64,000 nt of DNA from Gemmatimonadota bacterium. Its GTDB lineage: Bacteria; Gemmatimonadota; Gemmatimonadetes; Gemmatimonadales; Gemmatimonadaceae. Where the stretch lies: NCBI GenBank assembly GCA_016871855.1, contig VHBQ01000006.1:6103-70102 (forward strand), read 5' to 3'. The translations under genes were made by a program, and so were the position numbers. Below the pieces are notes generated by a model. That model ran no database searches. It saw nothing but the letters and a program-made list of their open reading frames with translations, and had not been told where the DNA came from. Within the stretch, counting starts at the first letter, position 1. The number at the start of each line of letters is the position of its first letter. This document shows, one piece after another, positions 499 through 44,225 of this stretch.

Positions 499-1796
499 CA
501 CACCCGTGGGCAGTGCTCGCCGCTCCCTCGAGCGGCGGACCCGACATTCCTGGACTCCTCCTGGTCCTCGCTGCGGTGCTGGCCGCGACGAAGATCGTCG
601 GCGCGCTGGCCCGACGCATCGGCCAGCCGGCCGTGCTCGGCGAACTCGTCGCCGGCATCCTGCTGGGCGGTTCGGTGCTCGGCGTCCTCGATCCAACGGA
701 GCCGGTGCTCAAGACGCTCGCCGAGTTGGGCGTTCTGATCTTGCTGTTCGAGGTTGGGCTCGAGACCGATTTGCAGGCGCTGCGACGGGTGGGCGGCGTG
801 GCGCTCACCGTTGGCGTGGCGGGCATCGTGTTGCCGTTCGCCGGCGGTTACGCGGTGGCGACGGCGTTCGGCGCCTCGACGATCACCGCGCTGGTGATTG
901 CCGCCGCGATGACCGCGACCTCCATCGGCATCTCGGCGCGCGTGCTCGGCGACCTCGGGCGATTGAAGACCGACGAGGGGCAGATCGTGCTCGGTGCGGC
1001 TGTCTTTGACGATGTGATGGGGCTCGTGATCCTCGCCGTGGTCGGCGGCATCGCCGCGGGGGCGGGCGTGACGGCGATGGGCGTCACGACGACGGCGCTC
1101 ATCGCCATCGGGTTCGTTGTGGGGGCGGTGGTCATTGGCGCCTTCGTCGCGCGGCCGCTCATGGCCGCCGTGGCGCGCGTGCCGGTGGCCGGCTCCGTCG
1201 GTGTGACGGCGATCGTCTTCGTCTTCGTGACGGCGGCGCTCGCCGCCAAGGTCGGGTCGGCGATGATCATCGGCGCGTTCGCCGCGGGGCTGGTGCTGCA
1301 CGGCACGCCGCAGCGGCACGAGATCGAGAAGTGGGTGACGTCGCTCGGCCACGTCTTCGTGCCGGTCTTCTTCGCGATGGTGGGCGCCGAGGTGGATCTG
1401 CGCGCGATGGCGTCGGCGCAGGCGCTCGGGCTCGGGGCGGCGCTGATCGCCGTGGCTGTGGCGGGGAAGGTGATCGCGGGTTTCGCGCCGTGGTGGTTCA
1501 AGGGCAACAAGCTGCTCGTCGGCGTGGCGATGGTGCCGCGCGGCGCAGTGGGGTTGATCTTCGCGCAGATGGGCGTGGTCGCGGGGGTGCTCGCCGGCGG
1601 CGAGTTCGGCGCGGTGATTGCGATGGTGGTGGTGACGACGTTCCTGACGCCGCCATGGCTCGGGGTGATCTCCGGGCCGGCGCCGGGCGGGCGGGGCGAC
1701 GGCGATGGGGTGAGCGGCTTGAACGAACTCGTCGCGGAGGGGGCCCCTCCGGTGCCCGCACCACGCACGACGCAGGCGCGGCCGAAGCTGAGCTAG
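495..1796 (+). CDS. cation:proton antiporter (Na+/H+ exchanger family, CPA2/Kef-like membrane domain)
   Basis: 433-aa polytopic hydrophobic ORF. The N-terminal KIVGALARRIGQPAVLGELVAGILLGGSVLG and G/A/V-rich helices are typical of this family. ATG 495 overlaps the speA stop (ATGA). Confidence 0.85.
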   Translation: MTHPWAVLAAPSSGGPDIPGLLLVLAAVLAATKIVGALARRIGQPAVLGELVAGILLGGSVLGVLDPTEPVLKTLAELGVLILLFEVGLETDLQALRRVGGVALTVGVAGIVLPFAGGYAVATAFGASTITALVIAAAMTATSIGISARVLGDLGRLKTDEGQIVLGAAVFDDVMGLVILAVVGGIAAGAGVTAMGVTTTALIAIGFVVGAVVIGAFVARPLMAAVARVPVAGSVGVTAIVFVFVTAALAAKVGSAMIIGAFAAGLVLHGTPQRHEIEKWVTSLGHVFVPVFFAMVGAEVDLRAMASAQALGLGAALIAVAVAGKVIAGFAPWWFKGNKLLVGVAMVPRGAVGLIFAQMGVVAGVLAGGEFGAVIAMVVVTTFLTPPWLGVISGPAPGGRGDGDGVSGLNELVAEGAPPVPAPRTTQARPKLS

Positions 1797-1851
1797 CGGC
1801 GCGGTCGCCAACTCAACGCGACTGAAGTCCGCACCGCACGGCCAGCGCAAC

Positions 1852-2829
1852 TCACGCCGCCGCCAGCACCTCCCGCTCCAGCCGCTGGTAGCTCGCCTCC
1901 ATTCCCGCGGTCATCCCCGTGCCGAGGATCATGTCGCGCACGTCCTTGCTGGGATACGTGATGACGAGCGCCATCAGGGTGCCGCCGGGCACGGTTGACA
2001 GGGTGAGCTCGTTGCGCGTGGCGGGGCCGGGGGTGCCGATCATCTGCTCGGTGGTCACCGCGCGGTAGGGCGGCGCGGACTCGAGCAGCTCGCCCTCGAA
2101 GCCGAAGCGCTGCGACTGATCCGCGTTCGCCCACTCGTAGCGGTAGCGGTCGCCCACGGCGGTGGCGACCTCGCACACGGGCATCGTCCAGCCGTCGGGG
2201 CCGAGGAGCCAGCGCTTCATCAGGGCGGGCTCATGATGCGCGCGCCAGACCTGCTCCACGGAGCCGCGGATCACGCGGCTCACGCGCACCTGCGTGTCGC
2301 TGAGCAGCTGCGCGTCGGTGGCGCGCGTCGCAGCGAAGGTGGCGAGATCGGCGAGCACGCCGTCGATCTGGCTCATCGCCGAGCGCATCCCCTCCATCAT
2401 CCCCATCTGGACGAGCTGTTCCATCGCATCGAGGGAAGGGAAGTACGTGACGCTGGTGAACCGCGAGCCGGTGGGTGTGGCCTCGAAGTTGAAGACCATG
2501 CGCATGTAGGGGAGGCCGTCGTTCCGACTGCCGTCCTCATGGCTGAAACCGTCCTCGATTTCAATGAGGCGATACGGCTCGATCTTGAGGAAGTGCCACC
2601 AGCCGTCATGGCGATCGCCGGTGGGGCCGGTCATGTAGTAGTGCGAGTAGCCGCCGACGGCCATGTCGTGCTGGGTGAAAGTGGCCGGGTACTCCACCGG
2701 TCCCCAGAAGCGCTCGATCTGTCGCGGATCGGCGTACGCCTCCCACAGGCGTTCGAGGCTCGCCGTGTAGTCGGCGACGATGGTGATGGTGAGGGCCTGC
2801 GGATCGGAAACGACAGATGTCAGCGGCAT
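1852..2829 (-). CDS. SRPBCC / Aha1-like domain protein (two tandem domains)
   Basis: 325 aa with two ~150-aa halves carrying Aha1/SRPBCC-like signatures (ERLWEAYADPRQIERFWGP and EQVWRAHHEPALMKRWLLGP). GGAG lies ~7 nt upstream of ATG 2829. The gene sits directly downstream of an ArsR gene, a common pairing. Confidence 0.75.
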   Translation of the reverse strand: MPLTSVVSDPQALTITIVADYTASLERLWEAYADPRQIERFWGPVEYPATFTQHDMAVGGYSHYYMTGPTGDRHDGWWHFLKIEPYRLIEIEDGFSHEDGSRNDGLPYMRMVFNFEATPTGSRFTSVTYFPSLDAMEQLVQMGMMEGMRSAMSQIDGVLADLATFAATRATDAQLLSDTQVRVSRVIRGSVEQVWRAHHEPALMKRWLLGPDGWTMPVCEVATAVGDRYRYEWANADQSQRFGFEGELLESAPPYRAVTTEQMIGTPGPATRNELTLSTVPGGTLMALVITYPSKDVRDMILGTGMTAGMEASYQRLEREVLAAA

Positions 2830-2888
2830 TGAGGACTCCGGGGGACGGAAACGGCGGAAAAGGGTGGAACGGGCGGTGAGCTTTGGCC

Positions 2889-3233
2889 TCAGGGTCTGGG
2901 CTCGTCGAGAACCGCATCCAACTGCGAGAAGCGATCGGTCCAGCGGCGTTCGAGTCGTTCAAGCAGCGCGCGGGCGCGGGCGAGTTGCCGCGGATTGCCA
3001 CGGACGAGGCGTTCGCGCCCGTGGGCGCGCTTGGTCACGAGCCCCGCCCGCTCGAGAACGGCGATGTGCTTCTGCACCGCGGCGAACGACATGTCGTAGC
3101 GCGCGGCCAGGGCGGAGACGGACGCCTCCTGGCCAGCGACGAGACGCGAGACGATGTCGCGCCGTGTCGTGTGGGACAGGGCGTGGAAGAGACGGTCGAG
3201 GGCCGTCGCCGGCAGATTCTGATATACAACCAT
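2889..3233 (-). CDS. ArsR/SmtB family transcriptional regulator
   Basis: 114 aa. Winged-HTH core LFHALSHTTRRDIVSRLVAGQEASVSALAARYDMSFAAVQKHIAVLERAGLV is typical of ArsR/SmtB repressors. Confidence 0.85.
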   Translation of the reverse strand: MVVYQNLPATALDRLFHALSHTTRRDIVSRLVAGQEASVSALAARYDMSFAAVQKHIAVLERAGLVTKRAHGRERLVRGNPRQLARARALLERLERRWTDRFSQLDAVLDEPRP

Positions 3234-3245
3234 TCGGTTGTATAT
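3222..3245. promoter_or_regulatory. perfect 10-4-10 AT-rich palindrome overlapping the arsR start codon (candidate autoregulatory operator)
   Basis: ATATACAACC-ATTC-GGTTGTATAT read directly from the sequence. The minus-strand ATG (3233-3231) lies inside it. It is an AT-rich island in GC-rich DNA. Confidence 0.5.
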
Positions 3246-3481
3246 TAGCGACGGCCGGCGGCCCGGGCAAGGGGATGCAGGCTGGGTTGGTGCGCGCCGG
3301 CCGGGGGCACGCGTTGCCGCGGAGGCCGAGCGGCGCCGCGATTCGTCCGGGCCGATGTCGGTAGGCAGGAACGCGGCCCAACGGTAGATTCCCTGCGCCG
3401 GGCTGCCGCCGACTGGCGGGGCTCGACGACCGTCGCATTCGGTGATCCTCAGTCTCCCTCTTCGCCGCCGATCAAACGCCG

Positions 3482-5740
3482 ATGGAGTTCTACCTCTTCA
3501 TCCTGATCATCCTGTTCGCGACGGCGCTCGCGGACCTGTACGTCGGCGTGGCAAACGACGCCGTGAACTTCCTGAACAGCGCGATCGGGTCGAAGGCGGG
3601 TTCGCGTCTGGCGATCATGGTCACCGCCTCGCTCGGCGTCTTCGTCGGGACCACGTTCTCGACCGGAATGCTCGAGGTGGCGCGCTCGGGGATCTTCAAC
3701 CCCGCGATGTTCACGTTTCACGAGGTGATGATCGTCTTCCTGGCGGTGATGCTCACCGACATCATCCTCCTCGACCTCTACAACACGTTCTCGCTCCCCA
3801 CGTCCACCACCGTGTCGCTCGTCTTCGAGCTCATCGGCGGCGCGGTGGCCATGTCATGGATCAAGGTCATGGCCGCGGGCGGGGACTTTGGCGGCGTGTT
3901 CGCCTTCCTGAACACGGCGCGCGTGGTCACGATCGTCTCGAGCATCGGCCTCTCCATCCTGCTCGCCTTCGTCGTGGGCGTGTCCGTCCAGTTCGTCACG
4001 CGCCTCGTGTTCACGTTTGACTATGAGAAGCGATTCCGCTGGGTCGGCGCCGCGTACACCGCGTCGGGACTCACGGCCATCGTGTACTTCATCCTCGTCA
4101 AGGGCGCCAAGGGCTCGGCGATCCTGACGCCGTCGCAGATGGAGTGGATCGCGGCGAACATGGCGATGCTGCTCGTCGGCGTGTTCATCGCCCTGACCGT
4201 CCTGTTCCAGGCGCTGATCCTGGCGACGCGGGTGAATGTGCTCAAGATCGTCGTCTTCGCCGGTACGTTCGCGCTGGCGCTGGCCTTTGCGGCCAACGAC
4301 CTCGTGAATTTCATTGGCGCGCCCATGGGGGCGCTGCACGCGTATCAGCTCGGCGTGGCCGCCCCGGGTGACGTCGCCTCGATGACCATGGAGGGACTGA
4401 GTGCGCCGGTGCGGGTGAATCCTTGGTTCCTGATCGTGGCCGGCGGCATCATGGTCGGCACGCTCTGGGTCTCCAAGAAGGCGCGGTCGGTCACGCAGAC
4501 GTCGTTGTCGCTCGGCCGCCAGGAAGAGGGCGTGGAGCGGTTCAGTTCGTCCGCGCTCGCGCGGAGCATCGTGCGCATGTCACTCAGCCTGCACGACGTG
4601 TATCGCGCGGTGACACCGGTTACCCTGCAACGCGTCGTATCCGAGCGCCTCGACCCGGCCAGGGCTCCCAAGTACACGGGGGAGGACGGCGTCCCGCCGG
4701 CGTTCGACCTGCTGCGCGCCTCCGTCAACCTGATGGTCGCGAGTTCCCTCATCTCCATCGGCACGGCGTTCAAGCTGCCGCTCTCCACGACGTTCGTGAC
4801 GTTCATGGTGGCGATGTCCACGTCGCTGGCCGACAGCGCGTGGGGACGGGAGAGCGCCGTGTATCGCGTCAACGGGGTCATCACGGTGATTGGCGGCTGG
4901 TTCGTGACCGCGATGCTCGCCTTCACGGTCTGCTTCGGCTTCACGTTCGCGATCTACCATGGCGGGCTCCCCGCCATCATCGGCTTGGTCGTCGTCGGCT
5001 TCTATTTCTACTTCCACACGAACCGGATCCACGCCGTGCGGGAGGCCGAGTTTGCCCAGCAGGAGAAGCTCTATGCGGGCATCGGAGCGACCGACATGCT
5101 GGCGCACAGCCGCGACGTCGCGCAGTACCTGAAGGATGCCGAGAAGGCCATCGAGGGCTCGTACGAGGGGCTCATCCGCAGCAATCGGCGCATGCTCAGC
5201 GACGCCGCCTTCCGGTCCCGCAAGCTGAATGACCAGGGCGACAAGTTGATTGGCGCCATCCTCCTGCTGCTGCGCACCGCGACGGACGAAGACCGGGGCA
5301 TCACGCCGCGCTACGGCCGCAAGATCGCGGCGTTGCAGATCGTGGCCGCCAATCTGTCGTCGCTGACCAGCGGCACGCAGGGCTACGTGGAGAACAACCA
5401 CACGCCCCCGGACGACGAGCAGGCGCTGGAGCTGCGCGAGGTGCACGCGACCGTCGGGCGGGTGCTCCACACGGTCGCTGGCGCCCTCGAACAGAGTCGG
5501 TTTGATGAAGTCGCCGAGGCCGACGCGGCGGTGCAGCGGCTGAAGGAGCTCATCCGCGAGTTCGACCGCCGCCAGATGCAGCGCATTCGTCTGGGCCGGT
5601 CGAAGACGCGACAGAGCCTGGTCTTCATCGGCACGCTCAACAAGGCGGAGCGCATCGCCGACCAGGCGGTCATCCTGCTCCGACTGTACGGCGAATCGAT
5701 GGAGGAACTTCGGGCAGGGATCGATATGCCGACGGCTTGA
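3482..5740 (+). CDS. inorganic phosphate transporter, PiT (PHO4) family, long form with cytoplasmic C-terminal extension
   Basis: 752 aa. N-terminus LADLYVGVANDAVNFLNSAIGSK and a second ANDLVNFIGAPMGAL repeat are the duplicated PiT signature. The C-terminal ~200 aa are hydrophilic and helical. Confidence 0.85.
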   Translation: MEFYLFILIILFATALADLYVGVANDAVNFLNSAIGSKAGSRLAIMVTASLGVFVGTTFSTGMLEVARSGIFNPAMFTFHEVMIVFLAVMLTDIILLDLYNTFSLPTSTTVSLVFELIGGAVAMSWIKVMAAGGDFGGVFAFLNTARVVTIVSSIGLSILLAFVVGVSVQFVTRLVFTFDYEKRFRWVGAAYTASGLTAIVYFILVKGAKGSAILTPSQMEWIAANMAMLLVGVFIALTVLFQALILATRVNVLKIVVFAGTFALALAFAANDLVNFIGAPMGALHAYQLGVAAPGDVASMTMEGLSAPVRVNPWFLIVAGGIMVGTLWVSKKARSVTQTSLSLGRQEEGVERFSSSALARSIVRMSLSLHDVYRAVTPVTLQRVVSERLDPARAPKYTGEDGVPPAFDLLRASVNLMVASSLISIGTAFKLPLSTTFVTFMVAMSTSLADSAWGRESAVYRVNGVITVIGGWFVTAMLAFTVCFGFTFAIYHGGLPAIIGLVVVGFYFYFHTNRIHAVREAEFAQQEKLYAGIGATDMLAHSRDVAQYLKDAEKAIEGSYEGLIRSNRRMLSDAAFRSRKLNDQGDKLIGAILLLLRTATDEDRGITPRYGRKIAALQIVAANLSSLTSGTQGYVENNHTPPDDEQALELREVHATVGRVLHTVAGALEQSRFDEVAEADAAVQRLKELIREFDRRQMQRIRLGRSKTRQSLVFIGTLNKAERIADQAVILLRLYGESMEELRAGIDMPTA

Positions 5741-18845: not shown

Positions 18846-19345
18846 TGCGCGGGGTTGTGGGCCACTTCAGGGAACTGGACTCGGCGGTCGAGGCCATCGA
18901 GGAGCTCAAGCAGAGCAAGCTGGGCGACCTCACGGTGTTCACACCGACGCCGCGCCACGAGTTCGAGCACGCGCTGCACCCGCCCAAGAGCCCGGTGCGC
19001 AAGTACATGCTGTTCGGCGGACTCGCCGGCTGCGTGTTCGGCTACTGGATCGCCGTCTGGGCGTCGAACTACTGGCCGCTCGTCGTGGGCGGCAAGGCGT
19101 TCAGCTCGTGGATTCCGTACACGATTTTCGGCTTCGAGGTGTTCGTGCTCGTCGGGGCGCTGTCGACGGTGGCCGGCCTGTTCATTCACGCCGGCGTGCC
19201 GCGGCTGACGATGATGGTCGGCTACGACCCACGCTTCAGCCGCGGCGACTACGGCATCTGGGTGGAGTGCTCGCCCGACCGCCTGGCGGCGGCTGAGGCG
19301 CTGCTCCGCAAGCATGGGGCGGTGGAGGTGCGCGGTGATCGCTAA
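18845..19345 (+). CDS. actD: ACIII subunit ActD (DUF3341-like)
   Basis: 166 aa with a soluble N-terminal domain and two TM helices (YMLFGGLAGCVFGYWIAVW, FGFEVFVLVGALSTVAGLF). Position matches act operon order. Confidence 0.8.
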
Positions 19346-20057
19346 GCGCTGGTTCCGTTCCGCGGCCCTCGCGGCGCTTCCGCTCGCGCTCGGCGCGTGC
19401 GGCACCACCTGGCTGTCGGACTTCAAGCAGCAGCCGTCCATCGGCCCGTGGCAGGTGTTCAAGGCTGATTCAGCGGAGCTGACGGGTTTCCGCGGCAATC
19501 CGCTGGGCTCGGTCTCCACGAATGGCACGCAGGTACCCATCTGGGTGGTGTCGTACAGCCAGTTGCCGAGCACGGTGGACTCGATGTCGACGCTCCCCAA
19601 CCCCGTGGCGGTGGACACCGCCTCGGTGCGGCGCGGGCGGATGTACTACCAGATCAACTGCGCGCCGTGCCACGGCGTGGCGGGGAAGGGGAATGGCCCG
19701 GCGACGACGCTCGGCATGGTGCCGATGCCGCTCGTGACGGACCGCGTGAAGAACTTCACGGACGGGTACCTCTGGGGGATGATCCGGAACGGTCGCGGCC
19801 TGATGCCGTCGTACAACCGGATCGAGGAGATGGAGCGCTGGGACGTGGTCAACTACATCCGCGTGCTGCAGGACAAGGTGCCGGGGATGGTGGCGGACAC
19901 GACGGCGCCGGGCCTGCCGGGCGAGACGGGGACCAAGCTTCCCGGACCGACGCGGATCGGCCCCAACCGGAATCCCGCGTTCGCCAAGCCAACGGTGATC
20001 GCCGTGCCGAAGGCGGCCGGTGAGCACGCGCCGGCGAAGACGGAGGGCCACGAGTAA
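19314..20057 (+). CDS. actE: ACIII subunit ActE, monoheme cytochrome c lipoprotein
   Basis: Lipobox LALGAC, a single CAPCHG heme motif and a downstream Met ligand region (GRGLMPSY). The start could instead be GTG 19335, in frame and overlapping the actD stop. Confidence 0.85.
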   Translation: MGRWRCAVIAKRWFRSAALAALPLALGACGTTWLSDFKQQPSIGPWQVFKADSAELTGFRGNPLGSVSTNGTQVPIWVVSYSQLPSTVDSMSTLPNPVAVDTASVRRGRMYYQINCAPCHGVAGKGNGPATTLGMVPMPLVTDRVKNFTDGYLWGMIRNGRGLMPSYNRIEEMERWDVVNYIRVLQDKVPGMVADTTAPGLPGETGTKLPGPTRIGPNRNPAFAKPTVIAVPKAAGEHAPAKTEGHE

Positions 20058-21403
20058 TGACTGCGCACGATTCTCCCGCCCCGGCGCGCGCGCGCGTGCT
20101 GGCGGCGATCGACAAGCCGATTCCGGCCGTCCTGAAGCAGGCGTTCCTGGCGATGTTCATCGCCGGCTTCGCCGTCTTCGCCTACGGCGCGGCGATCGGC
20201 AACGGCCGGGCCTGGCAGGCGTTCCACGTCAACTGGCTGTTCTTCACGCTCATCGCGTCGGCCGGCGTCATGTTCGTCGCCGTGCAGCGCATCACCACCG
20301 CGCGCTGGTCGCGCTCGGTGATCCGCCTGCTCGAGGGCTTCGCCGCCTTCCTGCCGTTCGCGTTTGTGGCGCTGCTCCTCACGATCTTCGTGGGGGCCGA
20401 GCACATCTACCCGTGGTGGGACCTCGTCGGGACGGGCGAGCTGATCCACGAGAAGGAGATCTACTTCAACCACGCCTTCTTCTGGGCGCGCTCGGTTGGC
20501 GTGTTCGGGTTGATCATGCTGCTGCAGGTCTGGTACGTGTGGACGTCGGTGCGGCTCGATGTGGGCGTCAGCCCCGAGAGGGGGGCGTCGTGGGCCGCGG
20601 GAATCCGCGCGGCGATGCGGCGCGGCTTCCGCGACGAGCGGCGCGAGCTCCACAGCACGCACAGCCGGCAGGGGTGGATGGCCGTGGTGATGGCGCTCCT
20701 GTTTGGCTTCGGCTGGGTGGTGATGGCGTGGGACCACTCCATGTCGCTCTCGTACCACTTCTTCAGCACGATCTATGGGTGGCAGGTTTTCATGGGCGGC
20801 TGGCTGGCCGCGCTGATGGTCTTCTCCGCCCTCGTGCGGGTGTTCAACACCCACCTCGGCGCGTCGGACCTCATCACCGAGAAGCAGTACCACGACATCG
20901 GCAAGCTCTGCTTCGCGTTCACCGCGTTCTGGGGCTACCTGACCTTTTCGCAGTACCTGGTGATCTGGTACGGCAACCTGCCCGAGGAGACGCACTTCTT
21001 CACGCTGCGGCTGAGCGGCGTCTGGACCACCACGACGGTGGCGGTGGCGGTGCTTGTCTTCGTGCTGCCGTTCTTCGGCCTGCTGAGCGTGAAGGCCAAG
21101 ATGTGGACGCCGACGATGATGGTCTTCGCGGCCTGTTCGCTGGTGGGGATCTGGCTGGCGCGCTACACCGAGATCTACCCGTCCATCTACGGTCCGCGTG
21201 AGGTGGGCGGCGACCTGCCGGCGCTGTGGAAGTGGAACCTCGCGCTGTTCGTCGGCTACTTGGGCGCGTTCGGCTGGTGCTACACCCAGTTCATGGATGC
21301 CTTCCCGAAGATGCGGGTCTTCCTGATGACGTCGGAGTTCCGGGACGAGGTGCAGGTGCCGTGTGATCCGGAAACCATGGAGCCTCTGCCGGCACATGAA
21401 TAG
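20057..21403 (+). CDS. actF: ACIII subunit ActF (second NrfD-like membrane subunit)
   Basis: 448-aa polytopic protein. The start overlaps the actE stop (TAATG). It is last in the act gene order, and its TAG stop is the first triplet of the heptamer array. Confidence 0.85.
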   Translation: MTAHDSPAPARARVLAAIDKPIPAVLKQAFLAMFIAGFAVFAYGAAIGNGRAWQAFHVNWLFFTLIASAGVMFVAVQRITTARWSRSVIRLLEGFAAFLPFAFVALLLTIFVGAEHIYPWWDLVGTGELIHEKEIYFNHAFFWARSVGVFGLIMLLQVWYVWTSVRLDVGVSPERGASWAAGIRAAMRRGFRDERRELHSTHSRQGWMAVVMALLFGFGWVVMAWDHSMSLSYHFFSTIYGWQVFMGGWLAALMVFSALVRVFNTHLGASDLITEKQYHDIGKLCFAFTAFWGYLTFSQYLVIWYGNLPEETHFFTLRLSGVWTTTTVAVAVLVFVLPFFGLLSVKAKMWTPTMMVFAACSLVGIWLARYTEIYPSIYGPREVGGDLPALWKWNLALFVGYLGAFGWCYTQFMDAFPKMRVFLMTSEFRDEVQVPCDPETMEPLPAHE

Positions 21404-21447
21404 ACGGTAGACGGTAGACGGTGGACGGTAGACGGTAGACGGTAGAC
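21401..21447. repeat. tandem 7-bp repeat array (TAGACGG) x6.7, left arm
   Basis: Read directly: TAGACGG TAGACGG TAGACGG TGGACGG TAGACGG TAGACGG TAGAC. It begins with the actF stop codon. Confidence 0.95.
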
Positions 21448-21452
21448 AACAA

Positions 21453-21485
21453 GCGGCGGGCTAGGGGGTGCTCCTAGCCCGCCGC
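21453..21485. terminator. perfect 13-bp stem / 7-nt loop hairpin between convergent actF and the four-helix-bundle gene
   Basis: GCGGCGGGCTAGG-GGGTGCT-CCTAGCCCGCCGC. There is no clear U-tract. It overlaps the last codons of the minus-strand gene. Confidence 0.5.
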
Positions 21486-21835
21486 GTTGCATTGGCTCGT
21501 ACGGCAGCCAGCAGGCGCACCAGCCGCGGGGCGAGGATACGGAGTTGGGCGGTGAGCTCAGCGTACTGCACTGGCGTCAGCGCGCCGGTGTCTTTGGCGA
21601 AGTCCACGTGACACTCGGTCTCCTTGGTGGATGCCACGGCGATGGCGATGTAGCGCGCGAAGGCCGCCTGGGAGTCGCACCCGGCTCCCTCCGCGAGATT
21701 GGCCGCCACAGAACGCGCGGCTCGCAGCAGCTGCCATCGCAGGTCACGGTCGTGCATTTGCGCGGTGTGCTGCCGGCAGCTGTTCGCCAGTGCGCGCGCT
21801 TGCGCATAGACCTCGAGTCTGTGAAGTGGATGCAT
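21461..21835 (-). CDS. four-helix-bundle protein (TIGR02436-like, '23S rRNA intervening-sequence protein' family)
   Basis: 124 aa. L-VY--A--L...LRWQLLRAARSVAANLAEGAGCDSQAAFARYIAIAVASTKETECHVDFAKDTGAL matches the family core (QL-RAA-SI-ANIAEG-G--S---F--FL-IA-GS--E----L) as I recall it. Confidence 0.85.
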   Translation of the reverse strand: MHPLHRLEVYAQARALANSCRQHTAQMHDRDLRWQLLRAARSVAANLAEGAGCDSQAAFARYIAIAVASTKETECHVDFAKDTGALTPVQYAELTAQLRILAPRLVRLLAAVRANATRRARSTP

Positions 21836-21920
21836 AGAGCGAGGATGGCGCCGCGCGTCCCGCGATGCGTCATCATTCGATCCCCGAGCGGTTCAATACA
21901 TCGCCGCCGAAGGCATGCAT

Positions 21921-21956
21921 CCACCGTCGACCGTCCACCGTCCACCGTCCACCGTC
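21921..21956. repeat. tandem 7-bp repeat array (CCACCGT) x5, right arm, inverted relative to 21401-21447
   Basis: Read directly: CCACCGT CGACCGT CCACCGT CCACCGT CCACCGT C. The reverse complement ACGGTGG differs from left-arm ACGGTAG at one position per heptad. Confidence 0.95.
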
Positions 21957-21994
21957 TGGAAGCCCCGCGCTTCAGTACTTAGATTCCCGTGCAC

Positions 21995-22067
21995 GGGGCG
22001 TTAGCTCAGTTGGGAGAGCACCGGCTTTGCAAGCCGGGGGTCATCGGTTCGAGCCCGATACGCTCCA
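21995..22067 (+). tRNA. tRNA-Ala (anticodon UGC), no encoded CCA
   Basis: Manual cloverleaf. Acceptor GGGGCGT/ACGCTCC carries the Ala-identity G3:U70 pair. D arm is GCTC/GAGC and anticodon stem is CCGGC/GCCGG with loop TTTGCAA. T arm is ATCGG-TTCGAGC-CCGAT, with discriminator A. Confidence 0.95.
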
Positions 22068-22081
22068 TTCGAAGACGGGGG

Positions 22082-22110
22082 TCGGCGTCAGCGCCGATTC
22101 CCGTTTTCTT
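22082..22110 (+). terminator. rho-independent terminator after tRNA-Ala
   Basis: TCGGCG-TCAG-CGCCGA followed by TTCCCGTTTTCTT. Confidence 0.55.
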
Positions 22111-22276
22111 GTGTCCTTCGCACTCTGACACGCGTTCAACGAAAACCCTCTACGCGAGCGTGCGTCGCAACATTCAACTCGTTACGCCATATAGTGTTAC
22201 TACGTAGGGAAAAACCGTACAGAAATTCGGCCTCCTGCGGCTGGAAAAGAGGGACGCAATTGCACTCTTTTCTTGC

Positions 22277-23017
22277 GTGACCAGCGCCGCCCCCCTCCAG
22301 ACACGGCAGCTCGCACTCGATGCGCGGGGGGTCGCGCGTCGATTCGGAGCGCGGTGGATCCTGCGGGGCGTCAACCTCCAGGTGCAGGCCGGCGAGATGG
22401 TCGGCCTCCTTGGGCACAACGGCTGCGGCAAGAGCACGTTCATGCGCATCGTGGCCACGCTGCTCAAGCCCTCCGCCGGCGATTGCTTCGTGTACGGCGC
22501 AAACGTGAAGACCGAGGGCGACGACGTGCGCCACCACGTCGGTTTCTTCTCCCATATCCCCGGCCTCTACGACGACCTCACGGCGCGCGAGAACCTGGCC
22601 TTCGCCGCCACGATGCTCGGCTTCCCGGCCGCGGACATCGACGCCGCGCTCGAGCGCGTCGGGCTCACGCACGTGACGCACGAGCGCGTGCGCGGCTTCT
22701 CGGCCGGCATGCAGCGCCGCCTCTCGCTCGCCCGCCTCATCCTCCAGCGCCCGCGCCTCCTCCTGCTCGACGAGCCGTACAATAACCTCGACGTCGCCGG
22801 GATCGCGCTGATGAACTCGTTCATCCGCGAGCTCAACGCCGCCGGCGGCGCCGCCGTGGTCGTGTTGCACGACTTGGTGCCGGCGCAGGGCGTGCTCGAC
22901 CGCACGGTGATCATCCGCGACGGGCGCGTGCACGAGCCGCGCCCCGGCGACTTCGGCCACGACGGCGCCTCGCCGCAGGCCATCACGCTGCCGGCCGGCG
23001 CGGCGGGGATCTCCTGA
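22277..23017 (+). CDS. ccmA: heme exporter ATP-binding protein CcmA
   Basis: GTG start. Walker A is GHNGCGKST, the ABC signature is FSAGMQRRLSLA and Walker B is LLLLDEP. It is first in a ccm-ordered operon. Confidence 0.88.
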   Translation: MTSAAPLQTRQLALDARGVARRFGARWILRGVNLQVQAGEMVGLLGHNGCGKSTFMRIVATLLKPSAGDCFVYGANVKTEGDDVRHHVGFFSHIPGLYDDLTARENLAFAATMLGFPAADIDAALERVGLTHVTHERVRGFSAGMQRRLSLARLILQRPRLLLLDEPYNNLDVAGIALMNSFIRELNAAGGAAVVVLHDLVPAQGVLDRTVIIRDGRVHEPRPGDFGHDGASPQAITLPAGAAGIS

Positions 23018-23042
23018 TGACGCGCCACCCGAGGACCCGCTG

Positions 23043-23729
23043 ATGGCCTTCCGCGACGACATGCGCCGCATCCGCGCGATCGTGTGGAAGGACCTCACCA
23101 CCGAGCGGCGCTCGAAGGCGGGGTTCAATTCGGTCGTCTCGCTCGGCGTGACCATTCTCGTGCTCTTCGGCCTCGCCCTCGGCCCCGACGCGCAGGCGCT
23201 GCGCGACGCAGCCGCCGGCGCGCTCTGGCTGGCCGTGCTCTTCGCCGGCGTGCTCGCGTTCAATCGGTCGTACCAGGTGGAGCTCGACGGCGGGGCGCTC
23301 GAGGCGCTGCTGCTCTATCCGGGCGCGCGCTGGGCGATCTTCGCCGGCAAGCTGATCGCCAACCTGATCTTTGTGTCGCTGATGCTGGTGATCGTCGTCG
23401 CCGTCGGGCTGGTGCTCTTCGGCGTGCGCGTGCCGGCGCAGTGGCCGTCCCTGCTCGGCCTGATGATGCTCGGCGTCGTCGGCATCGTCGCGCTCGGTAC
23501 GTTCTACGCGGCGATGTCCAGCCGCAGTCGCGCGCGCGAGGTGCTGCTCCCGCTGCTGCTCTACCCGATGCTCATCCCCGTGCTTCTCGCCGCGATGATG
23601 GCGACCAAGCTGTTCCTGAGCGGCGACCTGATGAATGAACTGGGCACCTGGGTGAGCCTGCTCGGCGCGTTCGATGTGATCTTCCTTGTGGCGACCTTCC
23701 TGGCCTTTGAATACGTGATCGAGGTCTGA
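23043..23729 (+). CDS. ccmB: heme exporter membrane protein CcmB
   Basis: 228-aa six-helix membrane protein in the ccmB position. N-terminus IVWKDLTTERRSK is typical of CcmB. Confidence 0.85.
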   Translation: MAFRDDMRRIRAIVWKDLTTERRSKAGFNSVVSLGVTILVLFGLALGPDAQALRDAAAGALWLAVLFAGVLAFNRSYQVELDGGALEALLLYPGARWAIFAGKLIANLIFVSLMLVIVVAVGLVLFGVRVPAQWPSLLGLMMLGVVGIVALGTFYAAMSSRSRAREVLLPLLLYPMLIPVLLAAMMATKLFLSGDLMNELGTWVSLLGAFDVIFLVATFLAFEYVIEV

Positions 23730-23734
23730 CCGTC

Positions 23735-24448
23735 ATGTCCCGCAACGACACCACGCAGTTTGGTCCGCCCCGGCCGGCTCCCGCCTGGCTCGGGTGGGGC
23801 GCGCTGCTCTTCTTCCTCTTCACGCAGGTCTACGCCGTCGTCACGTCGCCCGCCGACGCGATGATGGGACACCTGCAGAAGATCCTCTACGTGCACGTGC
23901 CATCGGCGTGGGTGACCTTCGCCGCCTTCGGCGTCGTGCTCGTCGCGTCCATCCACTTTCTCTGGAAGGAGGACGAGCGCGCCGACCTGCTGGCGGCGGC
24001 GTCGGCGGAGGTGGGGGCGATGTTCTGCGGCCTCACCCTGATCCAGGGGATGCTCTGGGGGCGCCCGACCTGGGGAGTCTGGTGGTCGTGGGACGCGCGG
24101 CTCACGAGCACGCTGGTGCTCTTCCTGATCTTTGTGGGGTATCTCGCCCTGCGGTCGTTCGTGGAGGATCCGCACCGGCGCGGCCAGTGGAGCGCGGCCG
24201 TCGGCATCCTCGGCGCGATCAACGTGCCGATCGTCTGGATGTCGGTGCGGTGGTGGCGCACGCTGCACCAGATCCAGAGCGACCCGCGCGAGGTGGCCCC
24301 GGTGTTCCTGCGCGGATGGCTGCTGAACGTCGCTGCGTTCTCGCTGATCGCGGTGTGGTTCATCTGGAAGCGATACGAGGCCGCGCGGTACGAGCGCGCG
24401 GCCGAGCACGCGGCGCAAGCGGCCGCGCTGGGAGGCAACAATGGGTAG
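23735..24448 (+). CDS. ccmC: heme exporter protein CcmC
   Basis: 237 aa. The tryptophan-rich WGRPTWGVWWSWDARL motif is diagnostic of CcmC/CcmF heme-handling proteins. Confidence 0.9.
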   Translation: MSRNDTTQFGPPRPAPAWLGWGALLFFLFTQVYAVVTSPADAMMGHLQKILYVHVPSAWVTFAAFGVVLVASIHFLWKEDERADLLAAASAEVGAMFCGLTLIQGMLWGRPTWGVWWSWDARLTSTLVLFLIFVGYLALRSFVEDPHRRGQWSAAVGILGAINVPIVWMSVRWWRTLHQIQSDPREVAPVFLRGWLLNVAAFSLIAVWFIWKRYEAARYERAAEHAAQAAALGGNNG

Positions 24449-34206: not shown

Positions 34207-34314
34207 CGCCGGCGAGCAGTCGCGACGCGCGCCGCCGCACTGCCGCCGGCGAGCGGACGCGATGCGCGCCGCCGCACTGCCGCCGGCGAGCGAACGCGAT
34301 GCGCGCCGCCGCAT
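34207..34314. repeat. 37-bp tandem repeat: two full copies plus degenerate flanking partial copies
   Basis: GCGCGCCGCCGCACTGCCGCCGGCGAGCGGACGCGAT occupies 34227-34263. It repeats at 34264-34300 with one mismatch. A third copy keeps the first ~13 bp, and a degenerate partial copy lies upstream. Confidence 0.9.
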
Positions 34315-34367: not shown

Positions 34368-36575
34368 ATGCTCGACCCCATCGAACACCTCGCGCGCGAC
34401 GACAAATGGTATCTGGGCGCCGGCGACGGCGCGCTCTTCGCGCCCACGTACCCGGCCTGGCTGGACACGCCGGGGTTCTGGGACGAGGCGACCGTCTACC
34501 AGTATGCCTTCGCGCCGCTCTTCACCGTGACGGTGCTCGACGCGGACGGCGCGGAGATCGCGGTGCGCGCGATGTCGCGGCGCTGGACGCCGGCGGACCT
34601 CACGGTCAGCTACCGTTTGGAGTCAGGTCTCACCGCCACAGAAGTGCGCACCGTGCATCCGGGTGGGGTCTTCGTCTCGGAGTGGCGGTTCGCGGCCTTC
34701 GAGCCGGTGCGCATCCACCTCGTGGCGTGGACCGCGCAGGACGGCGCCTCGGTGCCCATGGGCGAGGCGGCATGGAGCGACGGAGCGCTTTCCTGGCCCC
34801 GCGTGCTGCACGACCGCCGCCAGCAGCCGCTGCGTGTGCGCGCCGAGCTGGCGTGCATCGGCGAGCCGGCGTCGTGGGCCGCGTCGCGCAGCGAGATGAG
34901 CGCGCCGCAGCCACTCTGGCGGCATACGCCGTTCGTGGAGCAGTGGCGCGCGGGCGGCCTGCCGCGCGCGGTGCGCGATGAGGGCATCTCGCCCGACGGC
35001 CTGTTCTACGCCGCCGTGCATCGCACCATTGATATCGGCTACCAGGGGGCGTCGGCGGTCTTCGCGATGAAGGTCGTGGCCGACGATCCCGCGCTCCCGG
35101 TGCGGGAGACGGCCCGGAGCGTGCGTCCGTCGCACGGGACGATTGCCGGCGCGAGCCGCCGTCGCTGGCACGCCTGGTTCGAGCGGATGCCGCAGCTGCG
35201 CTGTTCGGACCCGTATCTCGAGACCTACTATTGGTATCGCTGGTACGGCCTGCACCTCAACGCCACCGCCGGTGGCCACGGCAACCATCGGTGGCCCTCG
35301 ATGTGCGAGGGGCCCGGCTTCTTCCACCAGCCGATCTCGTATTCGGCGCAGTGCCACGCGCGCGAACTGCGCTGGCTCAACGACCCCGAGCACGCGCGCG
35401 GCGTCCTGCGCACGTTTTTCGCGCACCAGCGCGAAGACGGCTCGCTGCACGGGCGCATCTACGCCAACCATCTCATCGGCACGGACTACTACCATGCCGA
35501 TTGGGGCGGGGCGCTGCTGGCGCTGGACGCGGCGTGGCCTGACGCGGATTTCGTCGCCGAGATGTCGCCGGCGATGGCGAAGTTCGCCGACTGGCTCGTG
35601 CGCACGCGCGACGCCGACGGCACGGGGATGTTCGACGTCGTGGACCAGTACGAGACCGGCCAGGAGTACATGAGCCGCTACCAGGCCGTGGATCCCGACG
35701 CCGACCGCCACGGCTGGGAGAATCGCCTGCGCCTCAAGGGGATCGACGTCACCGTCTACGCCTACGTGCTCTTCCGCACCCTCGAGCGCCTGGCCCACCG
35801 CACCGGGGGCGACGCGGCCAAGTGGAAGCAGCTTGCCACGCGCACGCGCGACGCGGTGCGCGACGAGATGTGGGATCCCAAACGCGCGATGTTCTCTGAC
35901 GTGGACCCGTCGAAAGGCCGGCGCACGGGGGTGAAGGCGGCAGTCTGTTTCTATCCGTATCTGACGGACATCGTGGACGAGTCGCACCTGCGCGGGATGA
36001 AGCAGTCACTGCTGGACCCGGCGCAGTTCTGGACCTCCTTCCCGGTGCCATCGTCGGCCGTCGACGACCCGCGGTTCAGTGCGGACGCCGAGTGGAAGGG
36101 GAAACGGCATGCCTGCCCGTGGAACGGCCGCGCCTGGCCGATGACGAACAGTCATCTCGTCGAGGCGCTCGCCGCCGCATCGCGACTCGGCGCTCCCGCA
36201 CTGCGCGAGCGCGCGGGCGACCTGCTGAAGCGCTTCGTGCGGATGATGTTCCACGATGGCGACCTGCGGCGCCCCAACGGCTTCGAGCACTACAACCCGT
36301 TCACTGGCCGCGCGTCGGTCTACCGCGGCATCGACGACTACCAGCATTCGTGGGTCGCCGACCTGATTCTCCAGTACGCCGCGGGCGTGCGGCCGCACGA
36401 GAAGGGGATCACGGTGGATCCGTTCCCGCTCGGCCTCGAGCAGCTCACGCTCACCGGCGTCCGCGTGCGGGGCCGCGCACTCGAGGTCCGGATCGTGGGG
36501 GAGCGCTTCACCGTGATCAGCGGCGGGGAGCGGTTTGAGTCGGCGCTGGGGGAGGCCGTGGAGTTGAACGACTGA
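34368..36575 (+). CDS. six-hairpin (alpha/alpha)6 glycoside hydrolase, MGH1-like / GH63-trehalase superfamily
   Basis: 735 aa. DVVDQYETGQEYMSRY and HACPWNGRAWPMTNSHLVEAL resemble the catalytic-acid and W-G-P-W regions of GH63/GH37-type enzymes. The exact specificity is unknown. Confidence 0.6.
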   Translation: MLDPIEHLARDDKWYLGAGDGALFAPTYPAWLDTPGFWDEATVYQYAFAPLFTVTVLDADGAEIAVRAMSRRWTPADLTVSYRLESGLTATEVRTVHPGGVFVSEWRFAAFEPVRIHLVAWTAQDGASVPMGEAAWSDGALSWPRVLHDRRQQPLRVRAELACIGEPASWAASRSEMSAPQPLWRHTPFVEQWRAGGLPRAVRDEGISPDGLFYAAVHRTIDIGYQGASAVFAMKVVADDPALPVRETARSVRPSHGTIAGASRRRWHAWFERMPQLRCSDPYLETYYWYRWYGLHLNATAGGHGNHRWPSMCEGPGFFHQPISYSAQCHARELRWLNDPEHARGVLRTFFAHQREDGSLHGRIYANHLIGTDYYHADWGGALLALDAAWPDADFVAEMSPAMAKFADWLVRTRDADGTGMFDVVDQYETGQEYMSRYQAVDPDADRHGWENRLRLKGIDVTVYAYVLFRTLERLAHRTGGDAAKWKQLATRTRDAVRDEMWDPKRAMFSDVDPSKGRRTGVKAAVCFYPYLTDIVDESHLRGMKQSLLDPAQFWTSFPVPSSAVDDPRFSADAEWKGKRHACPWNGRAWPMTNSHLVEALAAASRLGAPALRERAGDLLKRFVRMMFHDGDLRRPNGFEHYNPFTGRASVYRGIDDYQHSWVADLILQYAAGVRPHEKGITVDPFPLGLEQLTLTGVRVRGRALEVRIVGERFTVISGGERFESALGEAVELND

Positions 36576-36667
36576 CGGTGGACGGTAGACAGTAGACGGT
36601 AGAGGTTATCCACCGTCAACCGTCAACCGTCAACCGTCTCCCGTCTCCCGTCTCCCGTCTGCACCGT
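36573..36667. repeat. back-to-back inverted 7-bp repeat arrays (left ~4.7 copies, TTAT spacer, right ~8 copies)
   Basis: Left arm is TGACGG TGGACGG TAGACAG TAGACGG TAGAGG, then the TTAT spacer. Right arm is CCACCGT CAACCGT x3, CTCCCGT x3, CTGCACCGT. The left arm starts with the glycosidase TGA stop. Confidence 0.95.
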
Positions 36668-43967: not shown

Positions 43968-43977
43968 CTGCAGAAAA

Positions 43978-44032
43978 ACAACAGAGAGACAACAGAGAAA
44001 CAACAGAGAGACAACAGAGAAACAACAGAGGG
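43978..44032. repeat. 11-bp tandem repeat x5 (ACAACAGAGAG / ACAACAGAGAA alternating)
   Basis: Read directly. It starts 11 nt after the TAA stop of the TonB-like gene and is purine-rich and AT-rich relative to the surrounding DNA. Confidence 0.95.
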
Positions 44033-44060
44033 GCGGCCGAGTGCGGTCGCCCTTTGCTGT
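44031..44060 (+). terminator. rho-independent-type terminator hairpin
   Basis: GGGCGGCCG-AGTG-CGGTCGCCC (9-bp stem with one G:U) followed by TTTGCTGTTT. Confidence 0.55.
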
Positions 44061-44075
44061 TTCGTGGTCGGGCCC

Positions 44076-44138
44076 GCACCGTCTTCCGCCTTCCGTCTTC
44101 CGTCTTCCGTCTCCTGTCTCCCGTCTCCCGTCTGCTCT
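44076..44138. repeat. tandem 7-bp repeat array x9 (CTTCCGT / CTCCCGT variants), solo right-arm type
   Basis: GCACCGT CTTCCGC CTTCCGT x3 CTCCTGT CTCCCGT x3, read directly. Confidence 0.95.
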
Positions 44139-44225
44139 CTGGCCCAACCCCATTCCCGCGCCTAACTTACGCGGGTTCCGGACCGGCCCGGTGGCCCCGC
44201 TTCTCCTCTGTCGAAGAGGCTCCGC

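Follow-up and report, generated by a model that had tools for sequence, protein, structure and literature searches.

A four-helix-bundle gene in a bracket of inverted heptad arrays, between actF and tRNA-Ala of Gemmatimonadaceae, and its likeness to the intervening sequences of 23S rRNA

The S23p family of four-helix-bundle proteins was reportedly found in rRNA intervening sequences (IVSs) in 1993, and we know of no role established for it since then outside diversity-generating retroelements (DGRs). Heptanucleotide repeats are over-represented in bacteria, an excess that has been known for about as long as the S23p family and is unexplained. The IVS of Coxiella burnetii has a 28-bp terminal stem that is cut by RNase III in vitro (Warrier et al., PMC4990558). 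It contains tandem GACAGAT heptamers whose copy number depends on the strain, with the first of them at the site of RNase III cleavage (PMC4990558). The Xanthomonas genome that encodes the family member XCC0516 has 70 inverted, convergent pairs of GGGAATC arrays of unknown function (PMC4692102). One of its arrays lies between XCC0517 and XCC0516 and overlaps the annotated start of the latter (supplement of PMC4692102). The family, PF05635, has been noted inside cas operons before (PMC3936711), and the homology of S23p-type proteins to Avd was noted in PMC10053308. Here we consider a stretch of 64,000 nucleotides from a Gemmatimonadota bacterium (contig VHBQ01000006.1, called the window below). 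In it a gene of this family stands between actF, the last gene of an alternative-complex-III operon, and a tRNA-Ala gene, and it is enclosed by two complementary arrays of 7-bp repeats. We compare this cassette of arms and gene with its orthologous loci, with the rest of the family and with the described systems.

The gene is on the minus strand, in the loop of a potential giant stem (Table 1). The left arm lies 3' of both actF and the four-helix-bundle gene, and its first triplet, TAG at 21401-21403, is the stop codon of actF. The arms are 472 nt apart and 90% complementary across 31 nt, with one A/G difference per heptad (ACGGTAG vs ACGGTGG). Pieces of 28 nt from each arm form a duplex of about -40 kcal/mol on the plus strand and about -46 kcal/mol on the minus strand. 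The minimum free energy folds of 21395-21965 pair the arrays on both strands, with z scores of -7.6 and -8.9. The bracket was scored as the ungapped complementarity between the two 130-nt flanks of the gene. RNAduplex energy was dropped as a bracket score because it is noisy in GC-rich DNA (e.g. L093). The flank complementarity of the gene is 28.0, while 630 shifted positions in the window have a mean of 8.3, a standard deviation of 1.3 and a maximum of 15. The bracket of complementary arrays around this gene is far beyond chance. The first-pass annotation of the window had described the two arms with one mismatch per heptad, the hairpin and 375-bp gene between them, the tRNA 38 nt past the right array, and a stem joining the arms. 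Tandem Repeats Finder (TRF), the list of open reading frames (ORFs), the PF05635 and TIGR02436 models, ARAGORN and the folds agree with it on each of these. An Rfam scan of 19000-24000 finds the tRNA alone, so the cassette is not within 23S or 16S rRNA, and the arrays match no Rfam family. Sequence identical to that of the window is present in Lake Tanganyika metagenomes, and by its ActF homologues the window belongs to freshwater Gemmatimonadaceae.

The arms can be followed through the relatives. We ran TRF, ARAGORN, tblastn and jackhmmer on 80 ActF loci from relatives, 1.24 Mb in all. The spacer between actF and tRNA-Ala is 16-200 nt long in most of them. A clade at 77-83% ActF identity has the four-helix-bundle gene in this spacer. 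The 1.24 Mb contain 13 such genes, every one of them in this slot and on the minus strand, and jackhmmer over the window and these relatives found no paralogue outside the orthologous slot. A homologue search with the window protein returned only 37 close orthologues, mostly on contigs of 0.5-1.5 kb. The long contigs among them are the actF/tRNA-Ala locus again and add 3 further species.

Each cassette locus has a left and a right array with a species-specific unit (in L017 the left arm is a run of N). The units across species include TAGACGG, GGTAGAT, AGATGGG, GATGGTA, GGCAGAT, CGGGAGA, GGATGGC, GACGGAR and others. The right array of a locus always reads as the reverse complement of its own left array, with 0-1 mismatch per unit. 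Duplex energies are -43 kcal/mol for cognate arms and -31 for non-cognate ones (permutation p<1e-5). A third array fits the left arm of its genome at 0.63-0.86, as against 0.84-1.0 for the cognate right arm. The likeness of the arms reaches down to their irregularities: in L086 the A and G variants of the heptad both occur in both arms, and in L090 an irregular unit, GACATCA, is mirrored between them. The copy numbers of the two arms differ widely (25 vs 11; 3 vs 12), and each arm of the window is homogeneous internally and differs from the other at one position. Homogeneous arms with differing copy numbers imply turnover by slippage within each arm, while the likeness of the two arms must be maintained by some force.

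The first-pass annotation had proposed a filled-site/empty-site relationship for the cassette. An empty slot does exist in L013, which is nested in the clade beside L015 in the ActF tree (91% identity): the gene and both arrays are missing there, with a plain hairpin instead. Otherwise the cassette is an old feature of its clade, which agrees in part with an outcome that the first-pass annotation had named as counting against its proposal, and there is no sign of recent mobility among the Gemmatimonadaceae loci. It is missing from the actF/tRNA-Ala slot in about 65 more distant Gemmatimonadaceae. By this distribution the cassette is evidently old, has been inherited vertically in a genus-level clade and was lost once, in L013. 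Vertical inheritance within the clade together with absence from the distant relatives implies one gain. The cassette-free spacer of L013 also has a long-range inverted repeat at 4440-4640, CTACTACAGAACTCCCGA ... TCGGGAGTTCCGCAGTAG. Beside its tRNA are degenerate C-rich heptad-like units (CCATCTC CCACCGG CCACCGT), which may be a remnant of the right arm.

The same bracket is found in distant members of the family. Arrays and gene co-occur beyond this locus, both on plasmids and in metagenomes. A tblastn search of plasmids with the window protein gave no match, and the plasmid set was gathered by tblastn with XCC0516 (its sequence taken from the PDB alignment): 35 records, from which 21 genes in 20 loci were inspected. 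Twelve of these 21 genes have flanks that outscore all of the 75-123 shifted control positions of the locus concerned, and a thirteenth is outscored by only 1 of 122. The Gemmatirosa plasmid copy has 43-nt arms just beyond the search range. The arms differ from host to host: (GGGTGTA)n/(TACACCC)n in Calothrix and Nostoc punctiforme, (GTAGGGA)x9/(TCCCTAC)x5 in Nostoc edaphicum, (GGTGACA)x9/(TGTCACC)x4 in Anabaena 90, (AGGGAAC)/(TGTTCCC) in Nostoc C052, and GGTTYAA/TTRAACC in Riemerella.

The metagenome set comes from a cross-phylum alignment scan that gave 80 genes at 26-48% identity to the query, 65 of them with a complete ORF and both flanks. The flank complementarity of 33 of these 65 is above the 99th percentile of a cross-locus control. 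A short-period array lies within 200 nt upstream in 51 of the 65, downstream in 50 and on both sides in 38, against a background of 0.13 arrays per 200 bp. Of the 51 upstream arrays 39 have period 7, as do 40 of the 50 downstream ones, about 78% overall, and eight arrays on each side have period 8. There is a clear polarity, with G exceeding C in 45 of the 51 upstream arrays and C exceeding G in 44 of the 50 downstream ones. The arrays sit close to the gene: the median gap is 26 nt on the ATG side and 10 nt on the stop codon side. L161 and L169 have a common upstream host gene end and different self-complementary heptads (GGCAACG vs GGCAGTA), which we read as an independent second case of covarying arms. 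L095 and L098 are related cassettes with similar arms in different contexts. The arrays travel with the gene here, so they may be part of the unit and not, as in the selfish insertion into repeat hairpins that the first-pass annotation had considered, its target. Heptad bracketing is thus widespread across the PF05635 family and across phyla, and it is apparently undescribed. The first-pass annotation knew of no description of such arrays around this gene family, and a literature search of incomplete coverage likewise met no paper that describes inverted heptad arrays as a general bracket of PF05635 genes. What is known is known separately: the Coxiella heptamers, the heptamer pairs of Xanthomonas and Nostoc, and the scattered distribution of the gene family. 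One plasmid of the set, pNPUN01 of Nostoc punctiforme (L107), has two different four-helix-bundle genes (1108-1563 and 3974-4396) 2.4 kb apart. Each of the two has its own inverted heptad arms (GTCGGAR, GGGTGTR), and the pair flanks xisH/xisI and a tyrosine recombinase gene, next to tnsA.

The first-pass annotation had also seen the topology of an rRNA IVS outside rRNA, and true 23S copies with the same kind of heptad arms bear this out. In Azospirillum lipoferum (L096) the gene is inside 23S rRNA, in the region of helix 45 (Rfam large-subunit match 1735-4933). Its arms read GACGGAT GACAGAG GACGGAG... on one side and ...TCCGTCC TCTGTCT on the other. Two metagenome contigs, L160 and L176, hold 23S IVS copies with Azospirillum-like heptad arms. 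Copies in rRNA make up only 4 of the 80 metagenomic genes, the other two being L133 in 16S rRNA and L122 elsewhere in 23S rRNA. Other contexts of the family include the space between cmr2 and cmr3, that between cas6 and cas4, an antisense position between ribonucleotide-reductase genes, and conjugative plasmids. The setting outside rRNA is the rule for this family and the rRNA IVS is the special case.

The protein product of the gene matches PF05635 with E 4e-20 (72.5 bits, cut-off 33.8) and TIGR02436 with E 1.4e-18 (67.1 bits, cut-off 24), and phmmer finds it homologous to Xanthomonas XCC0516 (PDB 2gsc) with E 1.4e-5. The AlphaFold2 monomer model has a mean confidence (pLDDT) of 91.9, with helices at 3-24, 30-51, 56-82 and 88-122. 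In Foldseek the model matches 2gsc with TM scores of 0.83/0.89, 2rld (BT_0352) with 0.78/0.85 and Avd (4dwl) with 0.73/0.84. The family motif of Lin et al., GxxRxxxSxxxNxxE (PMC3936711), appears in its R-x3-S-x3-N-x2-E part as R38, S42, N46 and E49. The cross-phylum alignment shows no variation at R38, N46, E49 and G50, and conservation of S42 reaches at least 90%. The ORF is unbroken in 16 species; its median dN/dS over 115 pairs is 0.21, with dS near saturation. These ratios indicate that the ORF is under purifying selection.

We lean towards reading the locus as a chromosomal copy, outside rRNA, of an S23p-type IVS cassette whose arms would form a stem cut by RNase III in read-through RNA. 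The two arms would fold into a long duplex in read-through RNA of either strand. RNase III would cut that duplex, as has been demonstrated for the Coxiella IVS at its first heptamer, and the cassette would thereby be cut out of host transcripts, which amounts to insulation. Such excision would explain why the cassette is tolerated in rRNA, in cas and ribonucleotide-reductase operons and in the actF/tRNA-Ala spacer. The gene itself would probably be expressed from a promoter inside the loop. Its 5' region has a GATGAC motif at 21869-21874 and a -10-like CATCCT at 21842-21847, 6 nt before the ATG. All 16 orthologues have GATGAC about 35-40 nt before the ATG and a -10-like nAnnnT 5-7 nt before it (TACAAT in L086). 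A sigma-70 consensus scan found no promoter, and from the aligned motifs a promoter inside the loop, with a leaderless mRNA, is possible. The arrays would evolve by slippage, and the arms would be kept alike by pairing selection, by copying between the arms, or by both. A single arrival of the cassette in the actF/tRNA-Ala spacer of the clade's ancestor would have been followed by vertical descent, except for its loss in L013.

It must be noted that several observations weigh against this reading. About 40% of family members have no clear inverted arms. In the Pseudanabaena galeata plasmid (L102, 3850-4480), where the four-helix-bundle gene sits between cas6 and cas4, the arrays are direct, (AAAGCTA)x16 and (AAAGCCA)x9. 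The arm mismatches, taken in the sense of the gene, comprise 87 G.U and 68 A.C pairs (p=0.15) and 117 transversions. With no wobble bias and frequent transversions, nothing points to selection at the RNA level or to one strand. In the cyanobacterial L095 a TTGACT-17-TATAAT stands between the 5' arm and the ATG. Promoter-like elements inside the loop mean that the mRNA of the gene probably lacks the 5' arm, and without that arm the stem would form only in read-through RNA. Read-through may itself be limited. Orthologous loci keep an equivalent GCGGCGG...CCGCCGC hairpin followed by TTTGCATT on the plus strand. In the window the inner 13-bp hairpin is flagged as terminator-like on the minus strand, where its tail is TTGTTGTCTA; its tail on the plus strand is GTTGCATTGG. 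The giant stem of the two arms is no intrinsic terminator if a GC hairpin with a T run behind it is required. The inner hairpin resembles a terminator of actF, since a T-rich tail follows it in most orthologues; in the window it resembles one of the four-helix-bundle gene too. A terminator there would limit read-through and so the formation of the long stem. The authors of the Coxiella study think that its IVS protein is not made (PMC4990558), and the window gene is conserved. Finally, we carry the RNA duplex and its cleavage over to this locus by homology only.

The arrays of this lineage are not confined to the gene, and this bears on the other explanations. The first-pass annotation had pointed to empty arrays at 36.6 kb. 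They are real, and the pair at 36574-36603 and 36612-36660 folds at -48 kcal/mol and starts in the stop codon of a 735-aa gene. A composite repeat near 44.1 kb lies between two co-directional genes, and its 11-mer array is only partly complementary to its heptads. Both ORF-less arrays of the window lie between genes of the same direction and begin in or just past a stop codon. Among tandem repeats in the 1.24 Mb of relatives, a period of 7 occurs most often: 98 such arrays have 3 copies or more, and a crude gene call places 73 of these between genes. The ORF-less arrays of the lineage are mostly inverted pairs with the G-rich arm first, loops of 8-110 nt and often a central GC hairpin, and the pairs fold at -40 to -134 kcal/mol. 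Four distant relatives (L073, L077, L078 and L049) have an inverted heptad pair directly after the actF stop codon and no gene. The loops of ORF-less hairpins in L038 (384-481), L063 (2541-2654) and L064 (2268-2366) share GGGAAGAATACTATCATT. Its presence in the loops of three genomes could be due to a conserved loop element or a promoter. Upstream of the 735-aa gene, whose ATG is at 34368 and which ends in the 36.6-kb hairpin, a 37-bp unit is repeated 2.9 times at 34207-34313 (94% matches, TRF score 186).

One can imagine that the cassette is mobile at the level of DNA. The arrays would then be ends like terminal inverted repeats, or substrates for single-stranded DNA hairpins or template switching, and the protein would be an accessory. 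The complementarity would be kept by copying from arm to arm and not by an RNA function. We consider this scenario unlikely, though it does account for the scatter of the family over unrelated contexts (rRNA, cmr2/cmr3, cas6/cas4, ribonucleotide reductase and conjugative plasmids; PMC3936711). It would also suit the similar arms of the related cassettes L095 and L098, the mirrored irregular heptads of L090, the lack of an RNA-type wobble bias in the mismatches, and the resemblance of the protein model to Avd, a nucleic-acid-binding DGR factor. However, no transposase, recombinase or reverse transcriptase is consistently adjacent in the loci examined and no target-site duplications were seen. 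The arm sequences vary among copies, unlike transposon ends, and the cassette has not moved within the Gemmatimonadaceae clade since the clade arose. Cruciform extrusion with a 450-nt loop is also unlikely in duplex DNA. A very different explanation is coincidence: inverted heptad hairpins would be the usual terminators or mRNA stabilisers of this lineage, the gene would have landed by chance inside one such hairpin loop, with the distal arm idle. ORF-less hairpins are indeed frequent in Gemmatimonadaceae, usually after stop codons between co-directional or convergent genes, and the four relatives named above have one at the actF stop codon. We find coincidence very improbable all the same. 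Brackets of this kind stand far clear of the controls around unrelated family members from Cyanobacteria, Alpha- and Gammaproteobacteria, Bacteroidota and numerous metagenomic lineages. In 16 species the heptad has turned over completely and the distal arm still complements its partner, which is not how a useless arm would behave, and the right arm is in a divergent promoter region and not at a 3' end.

It might also be that the protein binds the arrays. They are then predicted to be iterated DNA or RNA sites of a pentameric four-helix-bundle protein, serving autoregulation or a nucleoprotein complex. ORF-less inverted arrays elsewhere would be further sites served in trans, as in the system of repetitive extragenic palindromes (REPs) and their associated transposases (RAYTs). 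Gene and arrays do co-occur across phyla, ORF-less arrays with the same GACGG core occur at 36.6 and 44.1 kb of the window, and most of the abundant period-7 arrays of the relatives are intergenic. The XCC0516 genome, with its 70 inverted pairs and one array abutting the gene (PMC4692102), fits as well, and so do the short distances between arrays and ORF. Set against this, pairs within one genome carry different heptads (two in L049, and the third arrays in L007, L008, L010 and L012). Among the few arrays available, a genome's ORF-less arrays are not measurably closer to its own cassette arms than those of other genomes are (1.75 vs 1.95 mismatches). The known relatives of the protein (Avd) bind nucleic acid without sequence specificity, and altogether we regard protein-binding arrays as quite unlikely. 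A role at the level of DNA or in protein binding would be compatible with the RNA model and would not exclude it. As a speculation, having the G-rich arm first on either strand might keep a C-rich site for Rho loading from being exposed during transcription of the loop.

The first-pass annotation had remarked that the cassette stands beside another stable-RNA gene, tRNA-Ala. tRNA-Ala follows actF in nearly all of the 80 relatives, with or without the cassette. A (T)TAGATT box is conserved 9-12 nt before its 5' end in L006-L015 and L058, including the cassette-free L013, and is probably the tRNA's own -10 element, judging by this conservation. The right arm ends where the -35 element of tRNA-Ala would be. 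L016 has the gene and arrays without tRNA-Ala. A functional tie of the cassette to the tRNA is rejected on these grounds: the tRNA occurs with or without it, has its own box, and is absent from L016. The adjacency is a property of the host locus and not of the cassette, and it looks incidental. The other neighbour is named actF by synteny only. Upstream of it are Pfam matches marking an ActA-like cytochrome, ActB, NrfD/ActC, ActD, a molybdopterin/FeS protein and cytochrome c; the actF protein itself matches no Pfam or NCBIfam model.

Other features of this slot deserve mention. In several species a third, unpaired C-rich heptad array lies 3' of tRNA-Ala, and L093 (Gemmatirosa) is arranged as G-array, C-array, gene, C-array. 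The slot is filled in other Gemmatimonadaceae clades by a minus-strand thioredoxin-2-like gene of about 150 aa, with a zinc-finger N-terminus and WCGPC. On the gene content of these clades the slot is a recurrent landing place for small antisense genes. Short-read assemblies break at heptad arrays: three Logan contigs stop 27 nt past the actF stop codon, and L003, L004, L005, L001 and most of the gene-bearing contigs of close orthologues end at the arrays. The arrays thus explain a practical nuisance of assembly.

Table 1. Coordinates of the features discussed; positions are those of the window unless a locus is named.
Feature	Position	Strand	Basis and remarks
Last gene of alternative-complex-III operon (actF by synteny)	20057..21403	+	ORF list, 448 aa; operon context
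Left arm, (TAGACGG)x6.7	21401..21447	G-rich on +	TRF, 95% matches
13-bp perfect GC-rich hairpin, 7-nt loop	21453..21485		Sequence; overlaps final codons of the four-helix-bundle ORF
Four-helix-bundle gene (S23p / 23S_rRNA_IVP / Avd-like family)	21461..21835	-	124 aa; PF05635, TIGR02436
5' region of the gene, inside the loop	21836..21919	-	Alignment by eye of 16 orthologous upstream regions
Right arm, (TCCACCG)x5.3	21920..21956	C-rich on +	TRF
TAGATT, -10-like box	21980..21985	+	9 nt before tRNA 5' end; 12 orthologous spacers
tRNA-Ala(UGC)	21995..22067	+	ARAGORN; Rfam RF00005, 67.9 bits; 38 nt past right array
ORF-less inverted heptad hairpin: (GACGGTA)x4.3, 8-nt loop, (ACCGTCA)x3.9 + (CCGTCTC)x3.9	36574..36660		TRF
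Composite intergenic repeat: (CAGAGAAACAA)x5.5, GC hairpin, (CCGTCTT/CCGTCTC)x8	43971..44140		TRF, fold, ORFs
Third C-rich arrays	L007 12176-12237; L008 12225-12257; L010 10877-10900; L012 3927-3957; L014 12086-12162; L086 after tRNA		
Thioredoxin-2-like gene between actF and tRNA-Ala	L030, L057, L066, L071, L077, L078, L080, L081, L083, L084, L085, L020	-	

A bolder view would join the gene family and the repeats into one widespread system, in which PF05635 proteins bind, maintain, generate or mobilise inverted heptad arrays. The ORF-less heptad hairpins would then be non-autonomous derivatives, as REPs are for RAYTs. Such derivatives would include the Gemmatimonadaceae arrays, the Xanthomonas GGGAATC pairs, the cyanobacterial heptamers of the short tandemly repeated repetitive (STRR) type and the ORF-less rRNA IVSs. 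We offer this tentatively and think it improbable as it stands. If it were true, it would explain both the excess of heptanucleotide repeats in bacteria and the function of the S23p family. At the very least, this is a large family found across the bacteria, and heptad repeats and the gene family are shown here to belong together. Several hypotheses can now be tested, namely insulation of the insertion by RNase III, recognition of the arrays by the protein, and avoidance of Rho loading by G-first polarity. The 16 or more orthologous loci, in which the arms have turned over yet remain complementary, are a natural experiment on the concerted evolution of arms.

It remains to set the locus beside the known systems. 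The REP/RAYT system (REPtron) likewise has a gene flanked by inverted short repeats that are also dispersed without the gene, and its repeat too differs by species. However, the gene here encodes a four-helix bundle and no tyrosine (HUH) transposase, its repeats are tandem arrays and not single palindromes, and the unit varies between loci of one genome. Avd of the DGRs shares the fold and superfamily, with the TM scores to 4dwl given above and a match to 8ub7 as well. It differs in sequence (about 11% identity) and in setting, for the neighbours within 10 kb here are respiratory and cytochrome c maturation genes. No reverse transcriptase lies within 10 kb on each side. The neighbours are alternative complex III, Ccm, superoxide dismutase and a methylase, the immediate ones assigned by Pfam. 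A DGR context is rejected for want of a reverse transcriptase within that distance; a pair of template and variable repeats was not specifically searched for.

The GGGAATC arrays of Xanthomonas and the heptamers of Nostoc (Rehm et al. 2015, PMC4692102), together with cyanobacterial STRR sequences, come closer in their repeats. These too are intergenic arrays that form convergent pairs with the G-rich strand first on either strand, and their copy number varies among relatives while the type of repeat is preserved. In Xanthomonas one array even abuts a four-helix-bundle gene, XCC0516. The Xanthomonas and Nostoc repeats differ in that they were described as G-quadruplex formers with short spacers and with no gene family linked to them (PMC4692102). 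Here the runs are GG and not GGG, and the arms stand far apart with a gene enclosed. Quadruplex potential (at least 4 runs of at least 3 G) is lacking in TAGACGG and ACGGTGG, and the AGATGGG and GAGGGCG of relatives would qualify.

The closest likeness is to the S23p-type IVSs in helix 45 of the 23S rRNA of Leptospira and Coxiella. The gene belongs to the same PF05635 family, and in both cases the ORF is in the loop of a stem made of terminal inverted repeats, with a loop of about 400-470 nt. Both have heptamer arms, GACAGAT in Coxiella, GACGGAT/GACAGAG in Azospirillum (L096) and L160, and GACGGTA here. There are differences. The cassette here is flanked by a protein gene and a tRNA gene, to which it runs antisense, and its arrays are longer and purer, with 5-7 units here and up to 25 in relatives. 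Its ORF shows the mark of purifying selection and it probably has its own promoter, and RNase III cleavage is known for Coxiella. The agreement between the GACGGTA arms of this locus and the IVS heptads implies that IVS stems are built of the same kind of heptads.

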